NCBI GenBank assembly: GCA_018817585.1
Contig: JAHITE010000094.1
Coordinates: forward strand, 1 to 58,959
Length of the DNA: 58,959 bases
From: Candidatus Omnitrophota bacterium
GTDB taxonomy: Bacteria; Omnitrophota; Gorgyraeia; B26-G9
Reading direction: 5' to 3'
Shown here: positions 1 through 31,065 of the stretch, piece after piece
How positions within the stretch are numbered: the first letter of the stretch is position 1
How the letters are laid out: each line of letters begins with the position of its first letter
Notes under the pieces: generated by a model
What the model was told of the DNA's origin: nothing
What the model saw: the letters and a program-made list of their open reading frames with translations, nothing else
The model's database searches: none
Translations under genes and position numbers: made by a program

Positions 1-1418
1 CAAGAGGAGATATATTGGGTATTTTAAGTGTGGATAATTGGGAAAAACCGCTCGCGGACAATCCTGATCTTTCTGAACCGATATTCACGCCTGGAGCGGA
101 TAGTCAGCAGAAAATAAAAAGTCTTAAAATGTTCGCGCAGCTAAGCGGATTGGCAATGCAAAGAATTGATTTTAAACGCAAGGAACAGGGTATAGATAAT
201 TTGCAGGAATCAGAAGCCATTCTAAGGGAAATATTACATGGCCTTAGGAATAAAATAATGAAGATTCGGGGGTATTTGACTAGAATTGAGGCTAAAGAAA
301 CTAAACAAAAAGTTAAGGAAAGCGCTGAGAAAATCAATTATTTATTTGCTAGTTTAGTTTTAAGGGTAAAAGGATCAGGTGAAAATTTAAAAGTTGATTC
401 TGTTTTGCGGCCCGGAGCATTGATTGATAGAGTTTTGCAGATTATTGAAGAATCAGTGGTTCTTATCCGTAGTCATGATCCAGAGAAAGTAAATGCTTTG
501 TTTCAGGGGTATACAAAACAACTACGTGATGCGGTAAGAAACTCGGGAAATGCGGCTTCTCAGCAGCAGCAGGATTTTTGGGATTTTCTGGATGATTTTA
601 AAAAACTGGCTGTTTATCAGGCTGGTTTGTTTGGCAGGAGGGAGGAGCTATTTGTTATTCATCAAGAGATCCAAAAATCTTGGCAAGAAATAGAGCGGAA
701 CATTAATTCTTTGCTTTCTGTTGAAGATGCTGACATTAATTCTCAAGAGCGAAAAAATCTAACGGACATACTCATGGCTTATACGGCGGCGAAAGAAGAC
801 TATGATAAATATATTGATTTATGTAATGATTTGGCATCGCGGGGTTTTTTACAAAGATCTCTGGATTATCAAAAAACCGACATTAATGAGTTAATGAAAG
901 TTATTGATGATCGGTGGTTATCCGGTAAATTAGAAAGCGGGATTAGGATAGATAATGATTTACCAAAAGTGATTGTGGATAGTCAGATTTTTCTTTCTGT
1001 TTTTGATGAGTTAATAATGAATGCTGAGAAATACGGAGGAAGTTCTGTATCGATTGATGTTTCTATGGATAAAAAACAAAAAGATTTTGCGCGTATAGAC
1101 TTTACTACAGCAGGAAGAGGGATCGCGGAAGATGAATGGGAAAAAGTTTTTCTTGATGAGTATCGTGTTGTTAAAGATGACGGGCTGGGAACAGGGTTGG
1201 GGCTTTATGCTGTAAGAAAAAACTTAGAACGTATGGGCGGTAAGATATCTATTACTAAAAGTGTTTTAAAAAGCGATAATCAGAAAGGTAGTGTCACTTT
1301 TTCTATTGAGATTCCGGTAGTAAATGAAGCCAGCTTAATTAAAGATGACTTTTCAAAAACACCTTTACTCAATAGAAAAAATATAAATAAAAATTCTTTA
1401 ATTGCTGTTTCTATTTAA
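1..1418 (+). CDS. Sensor histidine kinase, probably 5'-truncated by the window edge
   Basis: The frame of ORF 15..1418 stays open back to nt 3 (R-G-D-I precede the TTG at 15). H-box-like REILHGLRNKIMKIRGYL. HATPase_c N-box FDELIMNAEKYGG, G1 TTAGRGIAEDEWEKVF, G2 GLGTGLGLYAVRKNLERMGGKISI. No TM segment in the visible part. Confidence 0.75.
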   Translation, partial: RGDILGILSVDNWEKPLADNPDLSEPIFTPGADSQQKIKSLKMFAQLSGLAMQRIDFKRKEQGIDNLQESEAILREILHGLRNKIMKIRGYLTRIEAKETKQKVKESAEKINYLFASLVLRVKGSGENLKVDSVLRPGALIDRVLQIIEESVVLIRSHDPEKVNALFQGYTKQLRDAVRNSGNAASQQQQDFWDFLDDFKKLAVYQAGLFGRREELFVIHQEIQKSWQEIERNINSLLSVEDADINSQERKNLTDILMAYTAAKEDYDKYIDLCNDLASRGFLQRSLDYQKTDINELMKVIDDRWLSGKLESGIRIDNDLPKVIVDSQIFLSVFDELIMNAEKYGGSSVSIDVSMDKKQKDFARIDFTTAGRGIAEDEWEKVFLDEYRVVKDDGLGTGLGLYAVRKNLERMGGKISITKSVLKSDNQKGSVTFSIEIPVVNEASLIKDDFSKTPLLNRKNINKNSLIAVSI

Positions 1419-1785: not shown

Positions 1786-4700
1786 ATGTTTAGCAGGGGA
1801 AATATGTTTAACTCAGGGAAAAAACACAATATATATTTCAGAGCAATTTCCGCCGTGATTATTCAGGCGTTTTTGCTTAGTGATATTGCTTTTGCCGCTG
1901 GCGGTGATCTGCGCTGGCTGAATAATGATAATTCCCAATCTTCTACTCTGGCTCCTGGTACCGCTATCCCGCAGGGGACTTTTCGTACAAAATTTGATCT
2001 TATTTTAGCACTTGTATCTGCTTTTGAAAAAAAAGATAGCGCTGATTTGCCGCTGGGAATGAACTATATTGATCCAGCGAATTCAATTGTAAAATTTGAA
2101 GGCAAAGATTCAGATCTTTTTATATTTGAGGCAAATAAAGATAATGTTCCATTGGTTTTAAAGAATGCGGCCGATCAAATCAGATTTAATGGATATGTTA
2201 TAGCGACTCTGCCCAAAGAAGTTCAAAAAATTCCGGAAGATTATGTTGAGGTAATAAGTGAAAAAAGCTTTGCTGAAAAGCTTGCGGCTTTAAAAGCTCA
2301 GGGCAAAGACTTTGATCCCCGGGCAGCTTTAGAACTGGTAAAGCAGTCCATACTATTAAATGGATTTACTGGCCAGTCTGAAACTATTGGCGCAAAACAA
2401 TATGCTCCTTGGAAAAAAAATAAATGGGATGTGCAAAAGCAGGCTATTGCTTTAATGACCTCAGGCGTAATTGTGCGCATGCCGACATCAGCAGGTAAAA
2501 CCTTTGTATTCAATGGCGTCAGTGTCTTAAGAAGTTTGGCAAATAAATGGAATCCCAATGCTCTCAAAGAAGTTTCCATTGTTCACACTGAAGAAGGACT
2601 TGTTGAAAGAGACGCCAGAAACGCGGCTCAGGTAAATGCTGATTTCGGGCTTACCACTGGATATGTTGTTTCTCGCGACGGCAGGAGAATTGCTTATTTT
2701 GTTGATGTAAACGGCAATGAGTCTGAATTGCCGGGCGGAGAAAAAGAGCTTTATGCTACAGCTGACATTGTTTATTTAAATATTAGTAATTTTATTTTCC
2801 GTTTTCTGGATGATAATTTTACCGCGCGTTCTGAAGCGGATATGGCATTGAATTGGGGCAAACAGACCTATTTTCTCGCTTTTGATGAAGGAGATGTTCC
2901 TTTAGATATTCGCGCTTTTAATCCGCATACAATTTCCGGAGGAGCTTCGCTTACTGGACAAGGTTTACAGCAGATTTCTGAACAAACCCTTAAAATGCAG
3001 GAAATTATTGATCAAATGATCCAAGGCGAGTTATTGCCGGTCAGCAATGAATTATGCAAAAAAAATGATGATTCTAAAACAGTTAGTCTGACAAAACGCG
3101 GCGAGCAATGGTTAAAAGCTAAATTAAATACAATTAGCGCGTATACTGATAATAAAGATAAAGCTTCAGTATTTGCTGATCAGACTTTATGGCAGGAATT
3201 TACTGAACTCGCTTTATCCGCGTATGTCTATTATCAGAATGGCCAGGATTATATTATCTCAGATGAAAATAAAGTGGTTATCATTGATAAAGATAATAGC
3301 GGTATGCAGATGCAAGGCATGAGCTGGAGTAATGGCTTGGATATTGCTGTGCGGTTAAAAGAACGCCGCAATGGTCTTGATATTGAAATCAAGCCTGATG
3401 CCTTAAATGTTGCGTCCATGATTTTACCGGTAATTTTAAGTAATAAATTAGGTCTTGTTTCCGGAGTCACTGCGGCTTCTGCTACTATTGGAGAAAAAAC
3501 AGCTGATAAGTATGGATTAGAATTTAAAAATCTTAGCGGTTTGGATCAGGTTTCAAAAAGAGTAGAACAGATTATCCTGAGTTCAGATAAACAGGAATCA
3601 ATGCAAAACGCGATTGACGCGCTGGTTGTGATGAAATCAGATCAAAGCGCAACGCGGGAAATGGCTGATTGGGGAATTCCTGATAATGCCGGAGCTGTGC
3701 TTGTGCGCTGCGATAATGAAAATCAGGCAGCTGATTTTACTGATCAGCTTTTACAAAAACAAGCTATGTCCGAGCGGAATATTGTGCGGATTACTCAGGA
3801 TGGGAAGATTACTGACGCCAAAGGCGCTGAAATAGCAAACCTCAGCTTGGCTGATCTTGATTCTTTGCTTGCGGATGATAATGTGGACAATGTTATTATT
3901 GAATTTGTGTCTAAAAATCATGAGTCTGTATTTGGCGGTAAAATGTTAAAAGATAAGGTAGAGGCACTTTCTAAAAACAGTAAGGTTATTATTGTTTCTA
4001 CCAATATAGCAGGCCGCGGAGTTGACTTTAAAGGCGACAGAATGGTGGTTATGTCTTTAAGTGCTGATGCCTCTGAAGAAACAGATATTCAGCTTAGAGG
4101 CCGCAGCGCGCGTGATGGCAGAGAAGGATTCTTTTTTGGTTTTTGGTCGCCGGAAGATTTTAATAATTATAAAAATCTTGTTTCGGAACAATTAGCTTAT
4201 TTAAACAGCAAAGTCAGGGTTGGTAAGCCGCATACATTTATTATGAGCAATGATTCCAAAGCAGCTGATCGCAGCCAAAAAATTATCACGGCCATACGTA
4301 AAAGTATAAATGATAATAAGCAAACCATGGAACAGCAGCAAAAAGCTTTTGGTGAGTTTTTGTGGCAGGAAGCGGACGCGAAAGGGAAAAACCAAGGATT
4401 TGCCCGGGAACATGTAATGTATCGAAGAAGTATAGTTACTCAAGGTTTAAATTCCTTAGGTATTCCTCAGCATATCATTCAATCAATCAGAGAAAAGATC
4501 GCTCAGGCGGTTGAGAATAAAATCACTTTTTTTCTCCAGCCGGAAGAATTTGTAAATGAAATTTTAAGCAAAGAGTTTGGCTTGAGCGATATAGACGCGC
4601 GAACAATTAAGCAGTCTTTAGAGTCAGGAGATTATGATATTGCCCAAGCTGTATTTTCTGTTATCGAAACTGTGCTTAAAAATCGCGCTTTGGAAATTGT

Positions 4701-7700
4701 TGACCAACAGTGGACACGTTTTTTAAGTGAATCAGAATGGAATAAACATCGATTAGAAAAAATATCAACGCGCTCTGGATATGAAAAGCAGTTTATAAAA
4801 CCGCAGATGATTTACGCGGAAATTAAGCGGATTACCGCGAATATATTTGAACGGACTAAAACCGTAACTCAAGAAGAGTTGGGAAAGAATGTAATTGCTC
4901 TGGCTTTTCAGCTGGCGGGAAAAGATCCTACAAGTGAAGAGATGGATCAAGCGCAAGCAGCGGCAGATAAAATAAATACTCTTTCCCTTGGTCAAAGAAT
5001 AAAACTCTTAACTTTAAGAATCGGTCCAGCGGCTATCGCCATATCGGCTAATATTGCTTTGGCTGTTTTAATTGGCGTAATATTTAAAGCGCTTAGCATA
5101 GGCGGCGTCGGCAGCGCGGTGGGTTTACCGGTTATTGGCAGCGCTATCAGTTTATTTCTTAGTTTAGGTCCTGTTGCTTTGGCGGCGATTACCATCGGCG
5201 CGGTAATGATTGGATTCGCGCTTAATTCACAGGTAAAGCGATTATCTCAGGTTGATTCCAGTATTGCCAAAATGGCTGACGCGATCGCGATTGGCCATCG
5301 GCAGTCTTTAAAAGACATTGGAAAAACAGTCGGATTAACTGCCTGGCGCAAGACGCTTACGGTAACTGCTACTTTCGCTCCTTTTGTTGCCGCGATGACG
5401 CTTTTTTCCTATATTGGTTCAGCGGCGTTTATTGCCGGTACTATCGGCAATACGGTTTTACTTGCTTCTGTGGTATTAGGGGTTGTCGGGATTATATCTT
5501 CAGGTTTATTGCTGTTTACCAGCCGCAAAGATTTAAAATCAGCTCCTTTGATGCCTATGACCAGCGCGAAAAGATTTTTCCGCGGCGGAATTTTTGGTTC
5601 TTTAGTTACTTTAGGAACATATGCTTTTGCTTTTGTTTCCAGCGGAACTTTTGGCGTGCCGGTGATTATCGGTATTGTTGGGGTAGGAGCAAGTATGCTG
5701 ATCGCTAAAAATATATTCGCGCTTAGCAGTGATAATATCGCGGTTAAAGGCTGGATTACTCCTTTAGGGTTTCTTGCCGGTATTGCAGCGGCAGCGGCTA
5801 TTGTTTTAGGCATAGTTCCTTTATTAGGAGTTCAGGTTATTGATTCAATTCGTATCGCGATGAGCACTGGAGTTATGCCGGGAGGCGGAGTTCTTCAGGT
5901 TGTGGGCTTCCTGGTTACAGCTTTATTTTCTTTACAAGGCATAATGTTTTTTAAATCCCAATATTCTACTGGTCAGAAAATCGCTAAACAAGAAGTTGGT
6001 TTTGATGGCAAAGCAAAAAAATCTAAACAAACAATCTTTACTTTTTTGGCAATGGGACGAGCTTCGGCTCTTCAATCCCGGATGGTTATGATTACTACTG
6101 GTTCAATTATGGGATTAGCCGTTACCGTAGGTGTTCTGATACTCGGAGTAAAATTAATTGCCATGCTGCCGCTGATTGCTTTATTTACTGTTGGTACTTT
6201 TATTTCTAAGGTAATTATCAGGAAAATTTCCACAAAACCCACAGACTATTCTGCTTTAGCTAAGCGTAAAGTAAAAAACTTTGCCGGAATACAGTCTCAA
6301 TTAAATACAGTAGGCCTTAATCAGTTTTCGGAAAATATTGGTTTAATTATCAATCAGTTTAAGCAAGAGGTTGGTAATTCACAAAATCCCACCAGCTTAG
6401 CTTATAGTAAATTAAATGGAATGATTGAAAAAGATAAGCTTCTACAGACTTTTCTTATTGCCCTGCAAAGTTCCAGTCCTAATGACGGCAGTTTCTTTTC
6501 CAAAGCGGAAATAAAGCATATGATTGCTAAAATTCCCATGGAAGATTTAAATTCTCAACAGCGAGCGGCGTTTACTAAAGCAATAATCGCTTTATTGGTT
6601 GAGCTTAATTTAGCTAAGGTCGGAGTAAATAGATTATTCAACATTGCGGTAAATCCGGAAAAACTTACCAAAGCTTTGCAGATTTCAGTTATGCCGTTTA
6701 TGGGAGCAACAATGCTGGCTTCTGTGCCGACAATGGCGGCAGCATCAATCAGCCAAAACGCGCAAAGTCCTTATGAAACAGCAAAAGCAGACCTTCCTCA
6801 AAATACTCCAGAAATAGCGGCTTATTATGCTAACTTGGCTGAGCAGGCAAGAAATGAGCGGCTAATTGAAATTCCGGATATAGAACAAGAACAGGCTTTA
6901 AATCAATTTGTCAGTAAGTTCAGAATTCCGGTTCTTACCGAATACCAGACAAACCTGGCTTGTGAATTCGGGGCAATTCGGGAAAATGGAATCCGTACTC
7001 ACAAAGGTTTTGATTTTCTTGTCCAGGCAGGTACGAATATTTATCCGACAATGCCGGGCAGAGTTGTTTTTGCCGGACAAGGTACTGGGTATGGCAACCT
7101 TGTTGTTGTCGAGCATGAAGTTGAGAATGGTATCTCAGGGCGGATAGATTATTTTTATACTCTATACGGGCATAATCAGTCTAATTTGGTGAAAACCGGA
7201 GATTATGTGGGAGTTAATGAGCCGATAGCAAAAGCCGGGGTAACCGGTCATGCGTCTTCACCTGATGGCGGATGTGTACATTTTGAAATTAAACAGGCTG
7301 AAAAGAAGATTAATGATTATTATCAATACATAGCTTTAACAGCGCTGGATCCTGAAGCTGTTTTAGGTAAAGATCTGCATCTTATGGCTGATATCAGCAA
7401 ACGTAATGAACCAATTTTGGTTGCCTCAATAGATCCGAGTATGCCTTTGTTTAGTTTAGCTAAAAATAAAGAGCCAAAAGTTATTGGTCAAGCACCTCCT
7501 CCTCCAGCTAAAGAACAAGTTAATGTTTCTAAGCCTGCTCCATATTCAAGTTTTGCCGGGATTATTGGCAAAAAAATTGTTTTAAATCAACTAATAAAAG
7601 GTAATTCCTGGGCTCAGGCAGCGCAGAAACTTTTTGGAAATCCGCATCTTTGGGCAACATTGCGGGATATATATGCGCGGCAACATCCAGACGAGAACGT

Positions 7701-10700
7701 TGTTGGGACATTAATAATTAATATTGCTAATGGCGCTACTTTAGAGATCACGGAAGAATTAGCAGCCTTACTTAGTCCTGAATTTAAAGCGACTATTGAT
7801 CCTAGAAATGCAGAGCAGATTATTCAGCCAACAGTTCATCAAACAGTTTTGCCTATAGTTCCTGAAGCAGGAAGTCAAGTAACTGCGCGAGTATGGAAAC
7901 ATACTGTTGAACCAGGGGATTGCTTATCTAAAATAGCCCAGGATCTTTTAGGCAGTCACAGGTTATGGCCAAATTTCCGGGAAATTTATAATCAGCAGAA
8001 TCCGAATAAGAAAATAATCGGGACTTTAATTTTCGCTAGTGACACCTTAACCTTGAACATTACGGATGAAGTTGCGGCTTTAATGACTCCCGCGGCAAGA
8101 GAGAATCTTAATCTAAAACCTGCGGCAAGCGGACCGCCGCCGGCCATAGCAAAATTAACTGCTTCGGATACACCAGCTGCTATTGCTAATCCTGTTTCCA
8201 ATAATGATGATCAAGATCAAGATAGCTTTGCTATTCGTGATCAAGTGGCTGCGCGTGCTAAAGAATTAATGGCTTCGCGTGCCGCGGAATTAGCTAAAAA
8301 GAAAAATGCTGAAACTGAAAAAATTTATTACTCTGATCCTGCTAAACCAACCCCTGCTCGCAACTATGAACGCGGTCTTGCCAATGCGATTATAAAAATT
8401 TTAACTAATGCCGCGGAAGGCGGACATTTTGCGGTGGCGGAAAACCCTGCATTAAGTGATGAGTTAAAGACAGCTGGCAATTTATATTTTTATCATAAAG
8501 GTTCGGAACAGGAAATTGGTGCGCGTGATGGAAGTTTGCAAAAACTTATTGATGCTGATCGCGCCAGTAATACAGCCAAAAATGTGGCAGATATTGAGAT
8601 CTGGATTGGCAGTAAATATCTAAAAGATACTAAAGGTAATATTTTAAGAGATAAAAGAAATAATCCAATATTAAATGAATTAGCAAAACCATATATTCCG
8701 CTTATTGATAATAAGCCGCTGGTTTATGATTCTCTTAGCCAGCTGAGTGATGTGCAGAATTTATTGCATTTTTACAAATTTCCAACTCAGCTGGAGAATA
8801 GAGATAGCTTTGGCCGAGGTCAGGAATTAACCAGTCCGTCTGAGATTAGAGATTATCAGGCCAAAGGCTTTCCTTTAGATATTTGGATTGAAGGAAAAGA
8901 TGTTGGCGGTCAATATTCATACCGTTTGAATTTTGGTACAGTTGCCGCGAATATGACCCTGGACGATGTAAATGATTATGCCAGAGCAAGAGTTTTGCAA
9001 TTGGAAGTTGTGGGTAAAATTTTAAGTAATCTTGATCGCGAATCTCAGCAGCAAATGATCAACGACGCGAATACTAAGGGGATTACTCCTTTTGGGGCTG
9101 CGGCTATTCCAAATATCGCTGGGAAATTGCCGGAAAATCCAATGATGAAGGAAAATCCGTATATTGGAGCGATTGTTGCCCAAAGAGGCAGTAATCCGTT
9201 TGAAGTTAAGACTTATTTGCAAAGCGATAACCTGAATCAGAATTATATTGAAGTATATAATGCCCAGAAACATATCTCAAAAGCAGAACGGCTTGAAAAA
9301 ATAGATAAAAATACTAATTTTGATAATGTTTATTATTTCTCTAAAGACTCTGCGGGAAAATTACTTCAAAGAAAAATGCATTTTCTGAGTTATAATCGCC
9401 AGGGTAAATTAGTCGAAGTTAATGCCCGCTCGGCTCATGATGTAATTGTTTTGGAAACAGAAGGAGCCAAAGGAGACTGGGCTAATTGTGATATTTTATG
9501 GTTTGGCAAAAACGCGACTAATAAAGAAATTTTGAATGTTTCTATTGGTACTTTAATGCATCAGATCGCGGTTGAGAATGCCAAGAAAACAGAAAAACAG
9601 TTAAAACGCAGAATGGTGCTTGAGACAGCTTTAATTCCGTTAAATGTTATGGGCGGATTTGGTGTAGGCGGTATTATTGGGCAATTGTCGCAGCCAGGTG
9701 CTCAGGCCGGCATCCGTTTAATATATGATAGTTTATTTACTGCCTGGGAAATGCCTACAGGCGCTAAAATAATGGGCCCGCCAAGCAAAGATACTGTTGA
9801 GACTTTTATTTCCAGTTATTTGTTTTTTAATCAAGGCCCTGGCAAAAATAGGCCGGCAGAACAAAAAGGTCTTGAATTTATTACCAAAGAGGATAAAGCA
9901 GGCAACCTAACTGTTACAGATAAGGAATTTGCTGCTTATTTAGAAAAACAGAAGAAAGATAAAAAATCAGATCTTAATCTCTGGCTGACCATGGCCATGG
10001 ATGATCAAGCAAGCATAGGATTTGTTAACTATGTCCAGGGGCAGCGGAAATTTGCTATTGCCATGTTTAGCGCGGGAATACTGGATAACTTAGCACGATT
10101 GAACACCGAGAGTTTTAATGCTCCGGGCAATGCTTTTAGAAATATTCTGGCCAGCAGATATTTTAGTTTAACTGGTGAAGTTAATGTATTAGCAGTAATC
10201 GGGGCAATTGCCGGCAATGATGTTTTAGGTGCCGGAGCTAATTTTGGCGCGTTTAAAGAAGGCTGGGGAAATTTCTGGGAAAATTACGTTAATTTCTTTG
10301 GGGTTACAGTTGACGCCAAAGCAGTGATTAATAGCTTAAGTACTTTATTTACAAAAGACAAAGTATTTGAATATAGTCCTGAGCTGCCTAAAAAACGCGC
10401 TTTTGGTCTTTATTTTCTGGGATTTCCGATAATGACCTATTTTGATCTTAAAAATACTCAGGGATTTATTAATTCTTCTAATTCTTTTGCTTTTGAAATG
10501 GAAAGCAGCAGCAATCTTTTTGATAAAAAATGGTGGAGAGATAAAGTCACTGAATATACTGAAGAGGATTTTCAAAAACTCAAGCTGGTTCCTTTAGGAA
10601 AAGTCAAAGCAGAAGGTGAAAAAGGTCAGCCGGTTTGGAGGGTTTATTATATTAATGCTGATACTGGAGGGATTGTATTCTTGGGAGAAAAAGGATATGC

Positions 10701-13700
10701 CAGTAAACTAAAGCGGCTTGAAGACGATGTTAAGCTTTTTGATCAGTTTATGTCTTTGATTGGTGAGGGCGGAGGGAGAATAGAAAAGAAAAGTTATGAT
10801 GCCGGAGCTGTTGTTGAAGCCAATATCACTCAGCCGCAAGCCACGAAAGCTGGAGAAAGGATTCCAGACTTAAACCAGCAGATGCTTTCTTTTTCCTGGA
10901 ATACAAGGCATTCATTGACTAATATTTCTCCCAGTCATATTTATGATACAAAGGCAACAACAAATAGTCTTAATTGGGCTTTTACCTATGACATTGCTTT
11001 GCAATCCATTACTCTTGCCGCGGGCGGAATGCCCGATGAATCAGATGCTTTGCTTAATTACCTTACTGAGCACAAATGGTTATATCGCCAGGGGGAAAAA
11101 GATGATTTTAATGGCGGGGTCTATAATTCAGTTGATCTTGCGCAAATTTCTAGTGCTACGCAAAAACCAATAGCTGAGTTTCGCAATAATGCCGGAAATA
11201 GTAACTGGGTAGCCGCGGCGTTAATTAAAGGCGCTTTACAACATCTTAAACAGCGTTTTCCTGAACCCAGTCTTAATCCTTGGCAGCTAGTGCTTGTTGA
11301 TCAAAAAGAAGAGGTTGATCAGGGGCGAGAAGATTTTAGAAAAAATGGTGATATTGATAAAGTTTTTGCCGGCCGGGGCGAAACTCAGTGGGGTTTTCTT
11401 GGTTTGCGGACAACAAAACTTGCCGCGGTTGATCAAGCGATGAATGATCAGGAAAAAGCCTATATTGAGCGGGCAAAAAATATTGCTGTGTCATTGCTTG
11501 CTTTACAGGATAAAGATGGCGGAATCCGTCATGGTCCGACTGAGCTTAATATTAAATCAACAGAAGAAAATATCAATGCCTTTGGCTTATTTTCCATGCT
11601 TTATGATCTTACAGGTGAAAATAAATATAAAGACGCGGCTAAGAAAATTTTAGAATGGCTGCCAAAAGTTTATGATAAACAAACCGGAGTTTTTCATCGG
11701 GGAATTACCGATGAGATAGTGGATAAAATTTATACTACTGATGCTAATGCTTTGGCAATCATTGTTATTGGCCCTGAGATTTTAAATAAATTAAAAGACC
11801 GCAATGGTTATGTTTTTGATCCTAACGGCAAGACAGCAGAAAAGATCATGGGCTTGAAGGATAATAAGGGAACAATTACTGCCAGTGAAGTAACCGTAAA
11901 ATATAAGGGTAATGATGTTTTAGGTTATGATTATACAAACGCAGATGGCAGAGCAAACAGAGGAGCGGTTGTATCTCCGGAAATGACAGCGCATGTTGCC
12001 AAAGCGCATAAAGTTATGTTTCGCTATTACGCGAATGATCCCGCTAAACAGACATATCACGCTGATAAAGCTAAGACACTGCTGGATAATATGGAAAAAA
12101 TAGCGCTGAGAACTGATTTGGGAATTTCCTTCCCAAACAGTACTGTGCCGGAAAATATTAAACAGGGCGAGCAGATAAACCGATATTATGATGAAAGAAA
12201 AAAAGAATCAGGGCAAGCTGCCAGTGATTTTTATACTCCGTCATTGGCTAGTTTGAATTCTTTATGGATTATATTGGCTGACAAAGATGTCGATCCTTTT
12301 GATGTTCGCAATGAAAAACCGCTGGCTGAAAGATCAGCGGTTAACGGCTTTAAAGGATTTGATCAGTCGATTATCAATTTAAAAGAAAGAATTCTCGATT
12401 TGCAAAAACAAAAGAGAACAGATGCTAAATGGTCAAAAGAAAATGAACAGATTCTTATTGCGGCAATTGATCAGATTAATCAAAAAATGCAGCTATATAC
12501 AAAAGGTATGATCATCCCGGCTGGTCAGGAGTACAATCAAGATATTCTTACAATAATCGCGCTTAAAGCTAAACAAACTAAAGGAATAAAGCTAAACCCT
12601 AAAGAAGCAGCGGATCTTAAGGCCTCAGAATCAAGGCATCCATATTATCAAGGCTGGGATAAGTTGAGTATGCTTTCTGAGAAACGGTTTGTAATCAATC
12701 AAATTAAAGAGATTAAGAAGCTTGAAAGTCCAGCTAAAGATCAAAAGCTAAAGGAATTAATCGATAAAGTTATAAAAGCTTATTATGGTAATGGTCTGAA
12801 AAGTGAGCAGCAAATAGCAGTAATGATAGAGAAGTTTGCTCAATTATTGAAGAATAGCGAATCAGTCGAGATGGCTGCCTTTGAATTAGTTGATATGTTG
12901 TATGGTCAGGACAAGCTGATCAGTGAAGATATTTTTAAAGGAGTTTATCAATATTTGAGTGCGGAAGATAATAGTATCGTTACTGTTACTTTGATTGCTC
13001 CGGCAGAGGCAATTAAGGCTGCTAGAGAAAAAAGGCAGGAAGAGCAAACGATCGCGGCAAAACAGTATGAATTGCTTGAAAAAGGCGGAGTTATTATTAC
13101 TGATAAATCCACTGGCCGGCTTTTGGAAATAAGAGCGGGTGAGGGTATTGATGTATTAGGACAATTTCTCGATAAGATAAAAAATATGGTTGCCGCGGAG
13201 GAAATTGATGTCGCGGCTATGCAGAAAATAATGAAAGACCGCTGGGTATTTACAATCCCTGCGAATAGTTCTGAGGCGCTTTCTGTAAATGGCAAGAAAC
13301 AGGATGTGACTGTTACTTTGGTATTTCCTTATGCTAGTGAATATGTGCGCGAAGAGGAAAATCTAAGAACCGGAGAAAAAGAAGTGCGTGTTTTTAAGTA
13401 TGGTTTACTTGATCGGGTTATTACTAAAGATAAAATTACCGTAATGCAATACAATAACATTGAAGTTGATGTATCCGGTACTGTTTATGAAAATATCACC
13501 AGAAGACTGGACAAAGATGCTCCCTATAAACCGGAAAATATTTTACTAATATCAGAAACTGCTGTTTATGATACTGTTTTTGATGTAGAGAAAGTTTCTG
13601 GAGCAGTTAGCCCGGTTGTAATTAAAAAAGTTTTAGATCCTGATTCAAAAGCAGTTAAGTATGAGGTTTATAAGGATTATGAATTACCGGTTATGACTTT

Positions 13701-16700
13701 TAGTGAAAAATATGTCACGCTTATTGAATTTGATAAATGGGGACGTGAAAAGAGCAGTACTACTTATAAAAACACAGGAAGCATTGATAATCCTCGCTGG
13801 AATCCAGAAAAGCCTGTTTTAAGTTCAGAAGTTTTGCCGCTTATTGGGCTAAAAGATTCAGAGGGGAACCCAGTCTATTGGGATGAAAATTCTAAATGGT
13901 CAAGCAAGCTGGTTTTTGATCATGAACGCAATAAGCATTTTATTGAAGTCAGAGACCAAAACGGTAATTTAATTAAAAAGTATGACGGCACTATGTCTGA
14001 AAATACTCAGGCTAAACCCCAGCCATTGCAGGTAATTCCGGAACAAAAGGATCAGCAGTTTGAAATAGACGCAAGAGATGCTCAGGGCAGAGCGTTTAAA
14101 GTGGAAAAAGAAACTTCTTTCTATTTTGAATATCTAGATGAATTTAAAACTTTGGGTGTAAATGCCGCAGAGATGAACCGCCTGGGCTTAAAAGGCTCTG
14201 CCATGGTAGGAGATACCTATCTCTATACTATTGACGCTAATGGAGTGGGAAGTCGTCAGAAAAATGCAGAAGGTAAAGAGCTTGAACCTGTGGGCAGATC
14301 AGTGGCTCAGGTTCAGAGACCAAATGAAAAAGGTATCAGTAAATACTTTGATAATAAGGGGAATGTATTGCTTCAGATGTATGCGCCAAAGCAAAAACTT
14401 GTTTGGCAGCAGGTCATTGATAATCAGGGCAGAAAAGTAACTGAATATTATGGGTATATGGTTGATCGTAATAATAAGCGGGTTGCCAATGTCCAGGAAT
14501 CTGATTTAAGCAAATTAAAGTTTATTAGAGATAAGGTTTCTTATTCAATATACAGTGTTGATCAATTAAATGATTTGAAAGCATTAAACATCGGTATTTA
14601 TAATCAGCTTAAAGCTGAAATTAAGAAACTAAATATTGATATAGAATCTGAACAATTTAAAAAAGATTTAAATGCTCAGGGTAAGATTGATCTTGCTTTG
14701 CTGGGAGTTACCTGTGCTTATGATCCTGATACCAACAAACCAGTTGAGCTGATGGCATTTTCTTCTGTAGAAAAAAATGCTGACAACAAATTTATAATTA
14801 ATGGCGGCGATGTTTTAGTTATTAGTAAGGATATGCAGAAAAAAGATGTTTCCCAGCAGGTAATTGATGGCGCGGGAAGAGTTAAAATTAAATATGATGG
14901 AAAATTTGATTCTTTAAATAAACGTTTTATCAGGGAAAAAGTAACTTATTTTTACTATGAGTATCAGAATAGATTCGAAAGTTATAATATTTCAGCTGGT
15001 TTAGCAGAAGAAATGAAGATCCTTGGTCTCTTTGGGGTAGCCATGGTTGGCGAAACATTTACTTATGATGATAATACAAAACAGCAGAGTGCCCAGCCAA
15101 TAGCGTATTCTTTCTTAAGAGCATTTGAAAATAAGAGTTATGTTGATGAAAAGGGTAATATTCTTGTTCAAATGATGAATGCTAATCAGCATATGTCTCG
15201 ACAGGATCTTATTAATAATCAAGGTCAGACCATTAAACGTTATTTGGGTAAATTAATAAATGCAGAGACAAAGGAATTTGAAAGAGCGCAAGCGTCTTAT
15301 TTCTTTTATAGTACTCAGCAGCTTGAAGAATTTAAAGAACAAAACCCTGATTTTTATAAACAGTTAGTTAAAGAATATAAAAAAGTAGGCGTTGATATAG
15401 AAGCTGAAAGCTTTAAAGCTGAGCTTAATCGCAATGGAAAAATCGGCATTGCGATTATCGGAGCTACTTATTTATATGATCAGAATCTGAATAAAGAGAT
15501 TAAGTTGATGTCAGTTTCTCGTATTGTGAAGAATAAGCAAGGCGGGTATATTGATGAACAAGGTAATGTTCTGGTTGAGATGAAGGATCTTATCAATAAT
15601 CTGCATTGGCAGGAATTAATTGACAGTACAGGCAGAATTCAGGTTAAATTTGATGGCGTTGTAAAAGCTGGTCAATTTGTTAGAAATCAGAGAACATATT
15701 ATTTTTATGATTATGCCAGTTTTTTTGCTTATCGCCAAGCGCATCCCGAGCTTAAGGTTGAACTTGATGCTTGGGAAGCAAAACTTCCGCAGCTAGGCAA
15801 AGTTAATGCAAAAGAAGTAATGGATGAACTAGGTAGACGTAATATTGCTTTGTTTGGTTTTACTTTCCTTTATGATCAGGAAACAGATAAAGATACTGAG
15901 GCATTGGCATTTTCATTTCTTAATGTCCAGCAGAATCAAGGTAATAAGGTAGAAGATTATTTTAGTAAAGCTGGCGAAATCTCAGTTCAAAATGTCCGCT
16001 TTAAACAGCAGCTTACCTGGGAGGAAATAAAGGATAACTTTGGCAGACCAGTTAAGGTGTATGATTATGAAAAAGGCAAAGATAATAAATATTATCCGAA
16101 TAAAGTAACAAAGTATCATTATGTCTATAATGATACTTTCAGTAAATTAGGCATAACTAAGGAAGTTATGAATCAACTGGGCAGAGCGGGTTTTGCCATG
16201 GTGGGGGAAACTTATCTGCTTAAAAAAGGCACAAAAATAGAACAAGAAAAACCGGGTTCTGTTTCTGTAATGAAGCCGCATAAAAATCTAAAAGGAACGC
16301 AGTTGAGTGATTATTTTAATAATAAAGGAGAAATGATTGTTGAACTTGATAATAAGAGAGATCTGCGTGTATGGCAGGAAGTAAGAGACGCTCACGGGCG
16401 GGTTACATATTCTTATGATGGGGAAATAATAGACGGTAAATTTGTCATATTAAATGTAACGAGGTTTGATTATGATTATAGTGATGCATTATTTAATACT
16501 GTTGCTGAAAAGATGGAAAAGGAATGGATAAAGCTTGGCCTAAATAAAGAGCAAAAACGCGCTGAATTAAAAGAAGCAATGAGCAGATTATCTAAATATT
16601 ACATGGCGGCGGTTGGTAGTACATATCTTTATGATGCTGAAAATGGAAATGAGTATGGGATAAATCCAGATAACCTTACGGATTTTTCAATCCTAGAAAA

Positions 16701-19700
16701 ATTTAATCTTAATGAATATGGAAACCGTGATCAGTTTAAGGTTGATTTATTAAATAATGTGGATATTAAATTTTTAAATAACGTAGTTAAGAAGCTGGGA
16801 ATAAATATTGATGCTAAAGTTATCGATGGATTGGGGAAAGCGATTCGTAAAGCAGCCCAGGGATATGTTGATGAAAAGAGTTTTATAACAATTGATAGTT
16901 TGATTGAAGATTTAAATACATTGAAAACAGAATTTAATCTTAAAGGGTTAAATGATGCTGATTTGAGAAGTATATTTATTGAATTGTTTAAAAATACTGA
17001 TTACATAAATGATGATGGATATGTAAAGGCAATGATCTATAATATCCGAAATCGTCTTTTATGGATGGGGATAAAGGACAATAAAGGAAAAATTCAATAC
17101 AAGTATGATGGTTATTTGACTAAACCTGGTCAGTTTGAATGGGTATGGGTAACTAAAGTAAACTATTATTGGCCTGAAGAAATTGAAAATCTTGGAGCTA
17201 TCGGCATTGCATATAACTCAAATACTCATTTTTATCAGGAGCGAATTGATATGGATAGTTTTGCTTCAGAACTCGCCGCGGTTTATTTTTCTTCAAAGGA
17301 TATTAAGACGGACATTGAAAAGCTCATTAAGGTAACAGTAAAGAATTCTAAACAATCGGATGCTGTCCTAGCGGCTATAGATAAAATTTCGCTTAAAGGA
17401 AAAGACGAAATAGCTCTGAATAAGGCTCTCAGAGATCTTTTAAGAGAAATTATTAAACAAACGGCAGCTCCTTTTAATATTGATCTCGGATTGTCTGCAA
17501 ATTTTAATATCGATAAACTTGTTTTTGAATTTGGCAATATTACGGCAAATTCTAATAAAGATAATTTGATGCCAAAAATAGAAAAATTTCTTAGAGAAAA
17601 TGTTTTAGATAAAGAATATCGCGAGAAGTTATTGTTTGTAATCCAGCAGATCCTGCAAGACCCCGCTATGCAGAATAAAACAGCTAAGCAATATCAGGAA
17701 GCTTTGCTTATGAGTATAATGAAATCAAGAGAATTTGCGGTTGTGACGGAATCTCAGATAGTGCCTTTTAAGCAAAAAGAAGGAAAGGATATATATATTG
17801 ATGAGGCGGGTAATGTTATTTTTCATATGTTTCAGGTTAGAAGGCAGCTGGATTATCAGGAAGTAAAAGATAATCGTGGTAGTATTGTGATTCTTTTTGA
17901 CGGTAAAATTAATAAAGATAAATTAGCACAGCCTTTAACTAAACATAGATCCGAGGCTTTTGAACGGGATATTATGTCATTTTCATATTTTGAAAATAGA
18001 GTACTTAATTCAATGAGTATTTCTAACCGCGGAGAAGCATTCTTTTTTGATGAACAGGATTTAATGGCAAAAAGACTGGCGAATTTGCCTGTAAGAAATA
18101 TTCAGCTTTCTGTTTTTGAGTATACCCAGAAACTTAGAGGACAAGAGGCTAAAGACATGGAGTCTATAGTAAGCTTATCTGGCGGGCAGCGAAAGCTTGC
18201 TGAAAAACTAAGCAAAGTAGTGCAAATTGAAGTAGTTAAACTGGAACAAGATGTACAGTTTATTACTCCGGCTACTTTAGCTAAAAGGATTTACGCTCAA
18301 AAAGAAAAGTATGAATTGAATGGATTTACATTAAATTCTCTTACTAAATTATGTAGTGAATTATTTGGACAAAGATTTAGCGAGTCATGGTTAATCCCTT
18401 ATGAAGAGCAAAAAGGTTCAGATTTAGATGTATTCATTAGTAAAGATAAAGAAGGTAATGTTTTGGGTGATATTCATTATCAGGCTAAAGAGCGCTGGCA
18501 TTCAAGCATTTTTGATTTAGACGATCCACGTGATAAGGTTAAAGCAATAGACAATGATGCAATCCAGAAAGCTTTTGCCGATTATAGGATTAGGCTTGAA
18601 AAAGCCGGGGTTGAGGATTTTAGTCAAATTATAAAGCAAATAGGTGGAGAACAAAAATTAAGTGAAAATTTCCGCCCCTTATTATTAGAATCATTACTAA
18701 AATTACAAAAAGAAAAAGCCCAGGTTTCTCTTGAGTATATTATAAGTACAATGGATGGATTAAAAGGTGATTTTGGTTTAAGTGCTTTAACTAATACGGA
18801 TATAACTATTCTTACTTCAAGTTTATGTACTACGTCAGCAAATGTTTATTATCAAAAAGAAAAGGATAATCTGGGGCGGGTTGTAAAACATACTTGGGGT
18901 TATGTGGATAATACTGGTCAATTTAATGGAACAATGCAGTTTCGTTCACAGTATCAAACTGAATATGGAAAATTCGGGGTTGCGGATATTACAACATCAT
19001 TTTTAGTTGAAGCAAATTGGACATTATTCAACTATTCTAAGGCAGTTAATTTAGATCAACGCAGCGGTGCGGTTGATTATGCGGTAATAAAAACAATGCT
19101 ACCTAATGAAAGAGGCGAGTACTTTGCCGGAGAACTTGAGAAAAAATTCGAGGATTCATGGTATATATTCCGCATTCCTTTGCCGAAAACGGATATGATT
19201 GAATTTTTTCAAGCTGGCCCGTTTAATCTTAAGTATGATGCGGCAAAAAGTGTTGTTGAAGATTTGATTGGTAAATATAGAACAGGCAGATTCTTAACCC
19301 AAGAAGACCTTATTTACTTTTTAACTCCAAGCCTTGAAAAAAATGGAGTGGATATAAACAATTCGGATATAAAAGAAATTTTGATTTCCAAATTATTTAA
19401 AGGAATGGATTCAAAATCAGCGACTATATTTGTAGATAGAAAATCAATTGATGATGAGAAACAGCGTCCTAATATTCTTCAGATGTGGATGGAAGTTAAA
19501 AATAATAGAGGCCATCTTGATCTTATGTTTAGCGGGTATCTAAATATGTATGATGAACAAGGTGTTCTAATTAAAGAAAAAAGACAAAGCTTAGATGTCG
19601 GCACAATAGAGTTTGGTAAGACTTTTGTTAATTTTCTCCATTACAACAAAAAAAGAAATATTGGCATATCTAAAGGCAGTACACTATTTAGGTTTGATCC

Positions 19701-22700
19701 GAATTTTGCTATTGAAACCGAATATAATGGAGTTTTGTACCGCAAGTATAAAGATGAAGGTAGAGAAGATTTAGCCCACACCAAGGATCTGAGGTTTGAA
19801 ACAAATGAACAGGGGCGGGTAGCAATGCTCTACATTGTTGATGATGTCCGCCGCAGTAAACAAAGCACGGTTGGACTGGCTCTTAGACCTGACGGCAGAA
19901 AAGTATATGAAATTCATCAGGGTAAGGTTGGTAAGGGGGAACTGCTTAAAGGTCAGTTTACGGATAAAGTTAAGCTATATTATGATTTATATGAACTTCC
20001 AGTGGAAACAAAACTATTGTATCCTGATGGTACTGAAAGACTCAAAGAAAAACATTTTGTTGTATTTATTGCAGATAGGATTGCTGAACAATGGGTATTT
20101 GCGCAGAGAGTTGTAGAAACAAGACTAGATGCGTTTCTAAACAAGTTGAATGAATTTGTTAGCGGTAATGAAATTGTACAGCCACAGGGAGAAACCAAAC
20201 AGTTTTATACTCGTTCTTATGCTGAGTCAGAAAAAGAAGCAGAACGTAATGGGGCTTATTTTGAAAACGGTATTGAGATGTATCAGCGCAAAGATAAGTT
20301 TAATCCAGTTGTTTGGCGGGATTATCAGGCCACTGGTGCAGTGGATGCTTTTAAAGAATACCTTGATATACAAATTTTAAAGCATGCTACAAATAACTTA
20401 TTTACTAATGTTTTTGTCGAAGGCCGTGAACGCGGTGTTTTTATGCCATTACTGGTTGTTGTCGGAACAACCACAGTATTGATAACCTTAGGCTTGCCAG
20501 CAGCGCTTTTAGCAGCAAGCTGGTTCTTGTCTTTATTTGTAAAAGTCACTGGCAGAAAACGCAAAGCTTGGAAAGTGCCTGTTGCTGCAAGTGGTGATGG
20601 AACGCCTGATGATGCAGATAAGCCGCCGGTTGAGCCTTCTGTTGTTGTGGCTGGTTCAGGCCCGCGTACTGCGCCTGATGCTACTTTTGTTGGTTCAAAG
20701 AATATTGATTCAAGCATTCGCAACAGAATGTCGATTATGATTCCGCAGATCGGCGTTATAGGGCAATTCACAAAATATATAAGTGATCTTTATGAAGAAG
20801 GCGGATTTTTAGAAGCAGATCCAATTCTCAAAAAGGGCATGGAAGATGCTTTTATTCAGCGGTTTTATCCTGATTGGGATGGCAGAGAAGCAACAAGACC
20901 TCAGAGAACAGAAGAAGTTTGGTCTGGTTACTTGACTCAGTATGGTATTGAGTTAACTGAAATTGAAAAATTAGTTATTGAACCAGTGATGTATATTCTT
21001 TATTATGCAACCTCGCAGGATTCGCGCAGACTAGATAATTGGACCGCTGGTCAAACGCGTACGGGAAAAGGCAATAAATGGGATAAAGCCGATGGAGCTA
21101 TAAACTGGGATACGAAAACTAATCCGTTTGTTAAATTTGGTCATATTTATCAGAAGCAGGAAGAAAAAGAACTAGTAGTTGATTATATTGGTTCCTTATT
21201 GTCTGAACAGAATATTGTACTTACAGACGAAGACAAGGGATTCTTAATTACTAAGCTATTTAATAAAAAAGATTCAAGCATTATTGATCCTAAGAAAATT
21301 AAAACAATATTAGTTGATCGGTTTGGGGCGTTGGATGATTTAACAATTCAAAATATTGTGGATAAGGTTATTGTTCGCTATGGCGGAAGAGAAAAGATGC
21401 TACTTGTTGGTGATAGGGATTTTCGCCGTTATTTTGAATACTGTGAGCAAGACGGAATTGATCCTTTTACCGGAGAAGCCTTAAGACCAGGTGCGATTGC
21501 TAATCAAGAGCTTGATTTTAGAGGGTTTATTCCTGTTGCCAGAAAAATGATTGTAAGCCAATCTGCAGACAGTCAAAAAACTTTTTACGAAAAAGTGAAA
21601 AATAGAGATCAGTATTTGCTTGATCCCATGCGCAAGCTTCTTGCTGAAAAATATAAGCAGGATAATTTTAGGCCATATGAATTTCCTCAGGCTTTTGCTA
21701 AAGGAGATGTAAAGAGAACAATCCTTACCTGGGGACTGGTTCTGGGCGGCATTGCCTTAAGCGGATATTTCCTTTTCGTAGGTGGAATGGCTGCAACAGC
21801 ACTCTGGGTTTTTCCTATATATAGTTTATTTAGCTGGCAGCTGGTTGAGATGATGCCAATGCTCGTGTTTTTCTATCGCCATAAAATGGGCGGATGGATG
21901 ACGGTATTGCGGGCTAAAACAAGAGCGCAGTATGAAGGATTTAAGCCAAGACGTGACATGGCTAATGATCTTCGGGCGCAACTGGGGTTAAGTGTAACTC
22001 AGGCTAAAAAAGCAGTGAATATTCTTACTAAAGGATATTTTAAAAATGATTTTGCAACGCAAGACGAACTTAATGAGTTTATAGCTAAAACAATAAGAAA
22101 ATACAAAAAAGATTTTAGGATTATTGATTTTAATCAAGCAACTTTACTTTCATTTACAAAAAATTTAAATCAAGATAAAACAACAAGAGATAGACTGCAG
22201 GGTAAATATCGATTCTGGACAGTTTTGTTTACTTGTTGGGGTTTAAACTTTGCGCTTCTTTCCGGAGCATCATTATATTATGCAGCCGGAACAATACCTG
22301 CTATAGGTTATGTAATTGGTATTGGTGTGTTATTATTAAATTCCGTTGTTTCTCTGAGAAGCTGGTGGTCATTACTTAATGAGGCAGTTACTTTAAATAT
22401 GGAAAAACAGGGTAAATGGCGTGAATTCTCGTCTTATGAGCAGATAAAACCAATACATTTACAGCAGATTGCAGTGGATCCTTATTTAAAAGATGTTTTT
22501 AATACTGTATTAGTTGATGAAACATTGCTTCATTACACTCTTATTACAGAACAAGAAGTACAGCTGTTAAAAGATGCCTTGGTAAATGGCACTGCGCTTC
22601 CTAAGCTTGAGAACCCTCGTGCCCAAAGAAAAGTTATAGAATTCTTTAATAAAATAAATTTATATAGTGCTGATGAGTTTGAAGAGATGAAGGAATTTAT

Positions 22701-30546: not shown

Positions 30547-30560
30547 AAAGGAGAATAGCA

Positions 30561-30920
30561 ATGGATCAAGATAGACGTAATAGCGCAAGGAAGCAAGCTA
30601 AAGATACTTCAATAAGTCTGCGCCCGCTTGACCCGCAAGTCTGGTTTAGGTTTTGGAATGGCGCGGAATGTTCAATGCGCGATATTAGTATGGTTGGAGC
30701 AGGAGTTGTCTCCAGAGAAATGATTCCGATTGGATCACCTTTGAGCATGGATCTACGTTTGAGTAAAACCAATAGTATGATCCGTATTTTTGGTAAAGTA
30801 GAATGGGTTTCTGAGCACGATGGTTTATACCGAACAGGAGTTAGTTTTTCTTGGTGGAAAGATGATCAGGATAAAAATACTGTTAGCCAATGTTTGGAAA
30901 GATTAGCGAATTTAAACTAG
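30561..30920 (+). CDS. Stand-alone PilZ-domain protein (putative c-di-GMP receptor)
   Basis: RBS AAGGAG at 30548..30553; ATG 14 nt after the giant ORF stop. RRNSAR (RxxxR) and DISMVGAG (DxSxxG). Paralog at 52772..53140. Confidence 0.8.
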   Translation: MDQDRRNSARKQAKDTSISLRPLDPQVWFRFWNGAECSMRDISMVGAGVVSREMIPIGSPLSMDLRLSKTNSMIRIFGKVEWVSEHDGLYRTGVSFSWWKDDQDKNTVSQCLERLANLN

Positions 30921-30965
30921 TCATAAGTAACTTTAAATATTAAGGTTGTGTTAAAATTTTTAAAT

Positions 30966-30994
30966 TTGCAAAATAGAATATTATATGGTACACT
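30966..30994 (+). promoter_or_regulatory. Sigma70-type promoter with extended -10
   Basis: TTGCAA (30966..30971), 17-nt spacer, TGG then TACACT (30989..30994); about 70 nt upstream of the ATG at 31066. Confidence 0.5.
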
Positions 30995-31065
30995 TTAATA
31001 CATTTTTAAAGTCTTTATCAAAAGCCAAAATTAGCAACTTTAAAATATCGTATCGAGGAGGATAA

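Follow-up and report, generated by a model that had tools for sequence, protein, structure and literature searches.

The giant proteins of the Omnitrophota rank with the largest proteins known, and there is open dispute about where they are located and what they do. The contig JAHITE010000094.1 of Candidatus Omnitrophota (58,959 nt, forward strand, 37% G+C; the whole stretch analyzed, hereafter the window) encodes a protein of 9,580 amino acids and smaller neighbors that share its N-terminal leader, which raises the question of whether this leader is a signal peptide of the usual kind or a tag dedicated to a particular set of proteins. We consider it somewhat probable that the leader constitutes the N-terminal half of an Omnitrophota-specific, two-ended sorting or assembly signature on the modular proteins of giant-gene loci. 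The signature, its position at both protein ends, its restriction to one lineage, the unrelatedness of its cargo, and selection at the protein level are directly supported.

In the window, the 9,580-codon giant gene is followed by a PilZ gene, p1424 (1,424 codons), p849 (846 codons), a stub, and a major facilitator superfamily (MFS) transporter gene. An earlier note on this DNA had proposed four consecutive genes with a common leader of 27–30 residues. To avoid circularity, a detection hidden Markov model (HMM) was built solely from 24 leaders located outside the window and was applied to 1,139 six-frame pieces of the window. This independent model recovered exactly four leaders, with E-values of 4e-28, 5e-20, 4e-12, and 1e-10, and the next match (E 0.41) was the out-of-frame continuation of the fourth copy; the four homologous N-termini, i.e., those of the giant, p1424, p849, and a 41-codon stub, thus exist as described. 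Several details required revision: a leaderless PilZ gene (30561..30920) separates the giant gene from p1424, a frameshift makes the fourth copy a pseudogene, the KKHN...GG stretch of the giant occupies 1819..1905 instead of 1837..1905 (a difference of a few codons), and the conserved unit comprises approximately 65 residues. The judgment that the leader is far more conserved than generic signal peptides was upheld upon examination of the ordinary secreted proteins of the same loci: glycoside hydrolases (GHs) and lipoproteins carry ordinary signal peptides without a leader match, and the non-leader signal peptides found in the window (genes 40740, 43420, 44231, and 45548) score less than approximately 2 bits against the leader.

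The aligned unit consists of an n-region, a hydrophobic core, a cleavage-like site, and a subsequent L-[SA]-[PA]...I...F...F..LY segment. Column statistics were obtained from 53 distinct leaders (51 or 52 being countable in some columns), all of which are located at the starts of open reading frames (ORFs). The n-region has the consensus K-x-W-F-[KR], with one basic residue at column 11, and ends with K or R in 51/52 leaders. The core comprises 13 residues (columns 12–24), in which column 13 is I in 47 leaders, columns 17–18 are L-I in 49 each, and columns 21–22 are F in 51 and L in 49, and its center is occupied by N, Q, or H in 50/53 leaders. Position −5 is D or N in 52/53, position −3 is small throughout (A36/S7/V7/G3, 53/53), position −2 is W in 46, and position −1 is either A (51 leaders) or C (2 leaders); the five commonest residues at position +1 are G39/A9/S2/K1/Y1, with G or A in 48. 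The −3/−1 pattern persists in leaders that have lost the Gly-Gly pair (AFA/A, GFA/A, GLA/S, and SWA/Y, the slash marking the predicted cut). Approximately 13 residues past the site, L is found in 51/52 leaders and is followed by S/A, P/A, I/L, F, and Y. The net charge is +2.65 in the n-region vs. −0.96 over the 15 residues that follow the core, and the charge bias is N-in in 48/51 leaders; together with the small −3/−1 residues, these values support the earlier note, which likened the leader to a Sec signal peptide or N-in signal anchor.

The other half of the signature is a short C-terminal tail, which reads LLEQAI in the giant, AVGSAI in p1424, FIMQAI in p849, and LIAVSI in the ORF 15..1418 at the window start; the consensus derived from 42 tails is [LFI][IV]x[QR][AS]I-COOH. 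The ending [AS]I is present in 26/28 distinct complete leader ORFs vs. 2/43 leaderless ORFs that are complete and no shorter than 200 codons (Fisher p 7e-15). The two leader ORFs without it end in ...LQAA and ...GGDI. Two tailed ORFs were counted as leaderless: the first stands behind a leader stub, from which a frameshift separates it, and the second has a leader (ITALFVLISFMNSFVCLA...MLSPQLNV...IQNFF) too divergent to reach the HMM threshold. At the DNA level, the Ile, Ala/Ser, and Gln codons of the tail vary, all three stop codons are used, and the downstream DNA is unrelated, so that the tail is selected at the protein level, and its origin as a by-product of a DNA element (terminator, repeat, or recombination site) is excluded. 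Furthermore, a crude hydrophobicity count yielded an odd number of hydrophobic segments in 22/29 complete members, which is weak evidence that the tail lies on the same membrane side as the post-leader motif.

The distribution of the leader was examined by an exhaustive phmmer scan with full-length p849 over 1.84 billion representative proteins. Among its 153 matches, 25 carry the leader, always at the N-terminus, and many are confined to residues 1–65 of p849, with E-values down to 1.7e-14 for the whole library. Leader-only profile searches (4 or 27 sequences) of a k-mer-indexed database of 5.8 billion proteins returned nothing, which reflects the word prefilter and not absence. Furthermore, 23 loci were collected by pattern scans of GTDB genomes (with an 8-sequence leader alignment) and JGI metagenomes, the latter contributing 5 loci, and by contig look-ups. 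The 14 GTDB genome loci belong to metagenome-assembled genomes (MAGs) titled Candidatus Omnitrophota, save two from one MAG labeled Planctomycetia, and all family proteins with a source name are annotated as Candidatus Omnitrophota/Omnitrophica. The leader positions are conserved across MAGs from many sites. At least two leader genes are present in 12/23 loci, one of which has five in a row. In locus L019, a palindromic element, CTTCCGCCCCCGGAGCGGAAG, which is terminator- or REP-like (repetitive extragenic palindrome), was observed after three consecutive leader genes (stops 7783, 10160, and 13030).

The cargo of the leader is very diverse. Pfam domains found in the family include HEAT, DUF218, NUDIX, a complete transketolase, nucleoside diphosphate kinase (NDK), GDPD, guanylate kinase, GT2, HD, and cupin, in addition to the NadD-like and GT5 domains of the window proteins, and many members have no Pfam match at all. 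Among 39 non-redundant members, the cargo is dissimilar in 665/741 pairs (90%; BLASTP E<1e-3 being counted as similar), and leader identity in these pairs has a median of 36% and reaches 75% despite the unrelated cargo. The leader thus behaves as a module independent of its cargo. In a divergent locus (L024, JBGGHJ010000482.1), the leader reads ...LDVSWAYPP... and the tails are ...LQAA, ...IRTAA, and ...LRAL, which hints that leader and tail co-vary between lineages; a 2,971-residue neighbor in this locus with a weak leader match contains PGM/PMM and glucose-6-phosphate isomerase (GPI) domains. Furthermore, ten internal signal-peptide-like segments were found in eight members (among them P0047, P0059, P0064, P0069, P0070, P0138, and the protein at L002:5989-11967). 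These segments have a basic flank and the pattern K-S-x-L-L-P-A-x-L-T-x-A-x-I-A-L-S-S-x-x-G-W-A-G-D-G, with the same W-A-G site as the leader, and could be gene-fusion fossils or internal signal-peptidase sites as in viral polyproteins. No further leader copies, sought as such fossils, were found inside the giant protein of the window.

The features of the window that carry the signature, and the PilZ gene between them, are as follows, where SPase I denotes type I signal peptidase.
15..1418, + strand: N-terminally cut ORF at the window start with a histidine-kinase-type ATPase domain and the tail LIAVSI at 1398..1415 (Pfam, NCBIfam, and tail); judged by its tail, a probable fifth family member
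1804..30546, + strand: giant gene, 9,580 aa, from ATG at 1804, comprising leader, SecA-like ATPase, approximately 18 hydrophobic segments, Peptidase_M23, GH76-like stretch, NadD-like and guanylate-kinase-like modules, GT5/GT1, and tail (ORF list, Pfam, hydrophobicity scan, and BLASTP to p1424/p849)
1804..1896, + strand: signal-peptide part of the giant leader, MFNSGKKHNIYFRAISAVIIQAFLLSDIAFA, with the predicted SPase I site AFA/AGG
1945..1995, + strand: conserved post-leader motif of the giant, TLAPGTAIPQGTFRTKF (alignments and column statistics)
2272..4119, + strand: SecA-like DEAD motor and preprotein-binding domain with intact Walker A (PTSAGKT), Walker B (FDEGD), and motif VI (QLRGRSARDGREG) (Pfam and motif inspection)
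30526..30546, + strand: C-terminal tail LLEQAI of the giant (30526..30543) and stop codon
30561..30920, + strand: small leaderless PilZ protein, a conserved neighbor directly downstream of the giant gene (Pfam; same arrangement in loci L021 and L022)
31066..35340, + strand: p1424, 1,424 aa, from ATG at 31066; the body contains a NadD-like region with HYGH and repeated guanylate-kinase-like modules
31066..31158, + strand: p1424 leader, residues 1–31, with the predicted site GFA/AEN
31192..31242, + strand: p1424 post-leader motif, YLAPTINIQNGAISSTF
35320..35337, + strand: p1424 tail AVGSAI
35672..38212, + strand: p849, 846 aa, from ATG at 35672; the body contains HEAT repeats and a NadD-fold module (residues 410–830)
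35672..35758, + strand: p849 leader, residues 1–29, with the predicted site AWA/GG
35795..35845, + strand: p849 post-leader motif, MLSAQVQISQLDFALGF
38192..38209, + strand: p849 tail FIMQAI
38264..38675, + strand: fourth copy, a pseudogene, whose leader runs from a TTG start to the stop at 38387..38389

Beyond the leader, the giant protein has a SecA-like region (SecA_DEAD, SecA_PP_bind, and Helicase_C at residues 157–772 by Pfam), hydrophobic clusters at residues 1068–1460 (approximately nine segments), ~6211–6845, and 7469–7711, a Peptidase_M23 domain at residues 1732–1837 followed by the GH76-like stretch, and, at the C-terminus, a GT5 starch-synthase catalytic domain (E 8e-60) with the KSGGL motif and a GT1 domain. 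A search with its first 800 residues found canonical SecA proteins only, and weakly. The identification of this region as a canonical SecA was rejected: the motor and the preprotein cross-linking domain are present with intact motifs, yet the scaffold/wing domain (SecA_SW) was not detected by Pfam, whereas canonical SecA matches carry PF07516. The cargo assignments of the earlier note, i.e., SecA-like, NadD-like, guanylate-kinase-like, and starch-synthase-type GT5, hold on the basis of Pfam, of NCBIfam matches below cut-off, and, for the NadD fold, of structure prediction. The NCBIfam matches of p1424 (NadD-like and guanylate-kinase-like) and p849 (NadD-like) lie far under the equivalog cut-offs, the NadD-like scores being 22–25 bits vs. 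cut-offs of at least 112, and the HYGH motif is present in both proteins. In the AlphaFold2 (AF2) model of p849, the predicted local distance difference test (pLDDT) score exceeds 90 across residues 410–830, and the best PDB matches in Foldseek are nicotinate mononucleotide adenylyltransferases (TM-score by target 0.73–0.77). The modeled module is thus confirmed to have a NadD fold, which does not imply identity at the substrate level. A sequence search of p1424 against PDB yielded no match.

The two small genes are related to the giant gene by more than the leader. By BLASTP, residues 80–453 of p1424 match giant residues 8207–8623 at 55% identity, residues 410–835 of p849 match the same giant residues at 47% identity, and the rest of p1424 matches giant residues 8533–9045. 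Therefore, both proteins are composed of a leader and copies of C-terminal giant modules, with the tail in addition. The copied span of residues 8207–9045 corresponds to window positions 26422..28938, and the leader and the modules lie approximately 8,100 residues apart within the giant. In p1424 and p849, both ends were retained while the intervening modules were reshuffled, which suggests module exchange between the giant and the small genes. The fourth copy is disrupted: its leader starts with TTG at 38264 behind AGGAG and runs into a stop after 41 codons (38264..38389), its post-leader motif, LSPKLYVQDIAAHNFF, resumes in the next frame (ORF 38355..38675), and the frameshift lies near an A-run. 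A 76-codon fragment downstream (38660..38887, ...GHWEGD...) has a weak integrase-core match (rve, E 0.028) and is probably a transposase remnant. From the early stop, the motif in the next frame, and the integrase-like remnant, the fourth copy is concluded to be a frameshifted, disrupted pseudogene. Y1 transposase or AbiEii genes occupy the equivalent place in loci L021, L007, and L022.

The succession of giant gene, PilZ gene, and leader genes recurs in L021 and L022, and L022 (JAZDHZ010000007.1) is syntenic with window positions 1804..45505 nearly gene for gene, in the order giant (9,199 codons), PilZ, leader genes, MFS, GH2-like, two small secreted proteins, and GH2-like. The leader genes of L022 are a HEAT/DUF218-type gene and a 1,422-codon gene, vs. 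p1424, p849, and the pseudogene in the window, which suggests a rapid turnover of small client genes. In the window, the genes after the MFS gene encode GH2-like hydrolases, which have either an ordinary signal peptide or a lipobox, then a tetratricopeptide repeat (TPR) protein and two large proteins without annotation; the remainder comprises genes for a prepilin-type protein and a second PilZ protein, together with genes related to cell-envelope glycans.

This type of locus is already known. West-Roberts et al. (bioRxiv 10.1101/2023.11.21.568195) described Archaeovorin-type giant-gene loci of Omnitrophota, a subject to which a 2026 preprint (10.64898/2026.06.07.730766) returned. As far as the accessible text of these sources describes them, the window locus shares with them a divergent SecA_DEAD and PP_bind region without scaffold/wing, many transmembrane (TM) segments, domains of glycosyltransferases (GTs), peptidases, and GHs, a PilZ gene directly downstream, and GH2-type hydrolase, MFS transporter, and pseudopilin genes nearby, and it conforms to the published description. 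In the accessible parts of the same sources, the N-terminal regions of the giants are characterized as "generally lacking identifiable domains" and signal peptide or TM predictions are given in bulk only, with a DeepTMHMM result for long Omnitrophota proteins of 46% TM-only and 39% signal peptide plus TM (10.64898/2026.06.07.730766); some predicted extracellular placements are called "highly unlikely" by West-Roberts et al. (10.1101/2023.11.21.568195). No account of the leader, the tail, or the small leader-bearing relatives derived from giant modules was found in the accessible portion of the Omnitrophota giant-protein literature, full-text search included. The tail, the post-leader motif, the pseudogene nature of the fourth copy, the relation of p1424 and p849 to giant modules, and the assignment to a known locus type are additions to the earlier note.

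Additional observations concern the PilZ and pseudopilin genes. The PilZ proteins 30561..30920 and 52721..53140 are paralogous, both having RPLDPQ[VA]WFR[FY]WNG and similar ends; their genes lie after the giant gene and after the pseudopilin gene, respectively. A 650-residue protein (47434..49386) begins with a third PilZ domain. It belongs to a trio (47434..52418) that consists of a PilZ-headed protein (~650 residues), a protein without annotation (~770 residues), and a prepilin-type one with a weak match to "Verru_Chthon cassette protein C" and GspI/J. The trio recurs in L007:1013-5843, there directly before a leader gene, and is a candidate for associated machinery.

Comparison with established signal classes places the leader nearest to Sec/SPase I signals, whose sequence features are present, namely a basic n-region with N-in bias, an h-region within 7–15 residues, and small −3/−1 residues. 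A Tat signal, defined by S/T-R-R-x-F-L-K, was rejected since no RR occurs in the n-region, which has a single basic residue at column 11, and a lipoprotein signal since Cys is not among the five commonest +1 residues and is found only twice, at −1. A type IV prepilin (class III) signal with the N-methylation motif G/FTLxE does not apply, as the leaders have no N_methyl match and the sole N_methyl match of the window is gene 51741..52418. An amphipathic double-glycine/C39 leader of the LSxxELxxIxGG type was discarded because the two glycines are present in only 39/53 and 36/53 leaders and are absent in p1424 (AAEN) and others, and because the leader is strongly hydrophobic; no C39 peptidase domain was found in the window. 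YSIRK, ESPR, and KxYKxGKxW signals were rejected as well, since the N-terminal 100 residues matched no NCBIfam family at E<=1 and the full proteins have no N-terminal domain according to Pfam. Likewise, the tail is not LPXTG, PEP-CTERM, GlyGly-CTERM, or the Ig-like C-terminal domain (CTD, ~80 residues) of the type IX secretion system (T9SS), given its length of ~6 residues, the lack of a C-terminal hydrophobic segment in p849 and p1424, and the lack of an NCBIfam or Pfam match.

Family-specific Sec signals nevertheless offer the closest parallels. The YSIRK-G/S signal marks Gram-positive surface proteins, ESPR marks autotransporters and two-partner secretion proteins, and KxYKxGKxW with AST marks glycoproteins of the accessory Sec (SecA2/Y2) system. 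Like these, the leader is an n-h-c signal conserved beyond the needs of export, restricted to a lineage, and found on varied cargo. Two further parallels concern the accessory Sec system: conservation extends past the signal into the N-terminal end of the mature region, and both a SecA paralogue and glycosyltransferases belong to the system. By contrast, the motif is a different one without a Pfam or NCBIfam profile match, Asn/Gln and Asp lie inside the hydrophobic core, and a C-terminal tail is added; unlike in the accessory Sec system, the SecA-like domain is fused to one substrate instead of being a free SecA2, and the hosts are diderm Omnitrophota. Cargo with a second, C-terminal signal is known from the T9SS CTD, LPXTG/sortase, PEP-CTERM/exosortase, and GlyGly-CTERM/rhombosortase systems. 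These share with the present family a diverse cargo marked at both ends, a lineage-specific tag, and clustered genes, whereas the tail described here consists of ~6 residues ending in an invariant Ile at a free carboxylate and has no TM helix, basic cluster, or Ig-like domain, and no sortase-like enzyme was identified. Very short C-terminal peptides are read by the PDZ domains of Prc/Ctp/DegS-type proteases or of GspC of the type II secretion system, and by the TPR domains that recognize the peroxisomal signal PTS1 (SKL-COOH). The tail resembles such ligands in its brevity, hydrophobic last residue, free carboxylate, and independence of the cargo.

The following mechanism is envisaged for a two-ended signature. 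The first 29–31 residues most likely act as a putative Sec-type signal inserted N-in/C-out, and SPase I would probably cut after the small-Trp-Ala site; the basic n-region, the 13-residue core, the strict −3/−1 positions, and the charge bias together point to such a signal, with cleavage favored. Because conservation exceeds the needs of Sec, an additional dedicated reader is implied: the central Asn/Gln/His, Asp at −5, Trp at −2, the post-site segment of ~35 residues, and the tail would be read by a putative partner, which may sort or assemble the proteins after membrane targeting. A possible destination is a surface or envelope apparatus around the giant protein, near the pseudopilin and GH genes. 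What we infer here, as opposed to show, concerns Sec use, cleavage, the compartment in which the cargo ends up, and the partner itself.

Several findings weigh against this proposal. An N-in/C-out leader would put the intact SecA-like ATPase of the giant outside the cytoplasm, no hydrophobic segment being present between leader and motor, and the NadD-like (HYGH) and kinase-like modules of p1424 and p849 would likewise be outside, away from ATP. Several members have a second hydrophobic segment with a basic N-flank, a poor fit to simple alternating topology; a crude positive-inside vote over whole proteins (18 N-in, 10 N-out, and 1 tie) is indecisive and carries no weight. In the AF2 model of p849, pLDDT falls below 50 at residues 31–49 and 838–846, so that the model does not suggest how the two ends might be read; it neither supports nor excludes an N-to-C contact, such as a clasp of the post-leader motif with the tail inside one molecule. 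Furthermore, no PDZ domain, dedicated peptidase, or matching receptor was found in the window, co-occurring partners across genomes not having been scanned, and the neighbors in L007, L014, and L002 include no consistent candidate receptor or peptidase.

The proposed signature has to be weighed against readings in which the leader is nothing more than inherited, is never cleaved, or is inserted the other way around. Ordinary signal peptides that are alike only through recent paralogy might seem suggested by the 47–55% identity among p1424, p849, and the C-terminal module of the giant, which is comparable to the 33–59% identity of their leaders. This explanation is ruled out by the unrelated cargo of the 665/741 pairs, i.e., 90% sharing the leader without cargo similarity, and fares no better with the 8,100 residues between leader and module in the giant, the same positions kept across MAGs from many sites, the tail coupling (p 7e-15), and the dissimilar ordinary signal peptides of the neighbors; it is regarded as very improbable. 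Unlikely as well, although deserving more attention, is an uncleaved N-in signal-anchor (type II), in which the polar residues and the small patch A-W-A-G-G would drive helix association that brings the giant and its smaller relatives together in one inner-membrane complex, with the tail as a second contact. Polar residues and small-xxx-small motifs drive the association of transmembrane helices in general, and the leader offers features of that kind: N/Q/H in 50/53 and D/N in 52/53 leaders within an otherwise apolar stretch of 18–20 residues, a Trp that would likely lie at the interface of the membrane, and small residues in columns 27, 29, 30, and 31. AF2 predicts residues 2–30 of p849 as a single continuous helix (pLDDT 63–81), and the clustering of leader genes (12/23 loci) also speaks for such an anchor, as does the published DeepTMHMM split (10.64898/2026.06.07.730766), by which N-terminal segments are ambiguous to predictors. 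By contrast, the uninterrupted hydrophobic core has only 13 residues, the retention of −3/−1 without Gly-Gly is more in keeping with a peptidase site than with a packing motif, and the topological paradox is the same, the cargo still being outside.

The paradox would disappear with an unconventional topology, i.e., an N-out/C-in reverse anchor, a partner-held leader, or binding in cis to the SecA-like domain, in which the cargo would be cytoplasmic and tethered to the membrane. The cargo is overwhelmingly of cytoplasmic type with intact catalytic motifs and domains (Walker A/B, arginine finger, HYGH, KSGGL, NDK, transketolase, and PGM/GPI), and doubts about some extracellular placements are expressed by West-Roberts et al. 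(10.1101/2023.11.21.568195). Such a topology is nevertheless quite improbable: the charge bias is strongly N-in/C-out (48/51), the conserved −3/−1 peptidase-type site would be unexplained, and p849, p1424, P0057, and P0012 have no second hydrophobic segment to return the chain, the hydrophobicity scan of p849 and p1424 detecting the leader only. If the paradox is instead taken at face value, an unrecognized export or assembly pathway of Omnitrophota would place nucleotide- and sugar-phosphate-dependent enzymes outside the cytoplasmic membrane, their ends being read by a receptor or paired head-to-tail onto the giant. Its cargo could include the SecA-like ATPase, the NadD- and kinase-like modules, NDK, transketolase, and the starch-synthase-type GT, and its location could be an energized envelope compartment, a cell coat, or a site at or inside a prey cell; this extension of the proposed signature is rather unlikely. 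Among the three options of the earlier note, the dedicated sorting tag gains weight from the unrelated cargo and the tail coupling, and is supported by distribution and coupling, not proven; the question of topology is sharpened, not solved.

The small members whose sole hydrophobic segment is the leader (p849, p1424, P0057, and P0012) make the question of giant topology tractable. Published topology predictions locate domains of glycolytic and nucleotide-dependent types outside the cell, and some of these placements are questioned by their own authors (10.1101/2023.11.21.568195). The compact two-ended signature is a searchable tag that lists the client family in any genome and provides a handle for finding the sorting machinery. 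If the cargo is truly extracytoplasmic, our understanding of how these ultra-small bacteria live as predators or epibionts would change.

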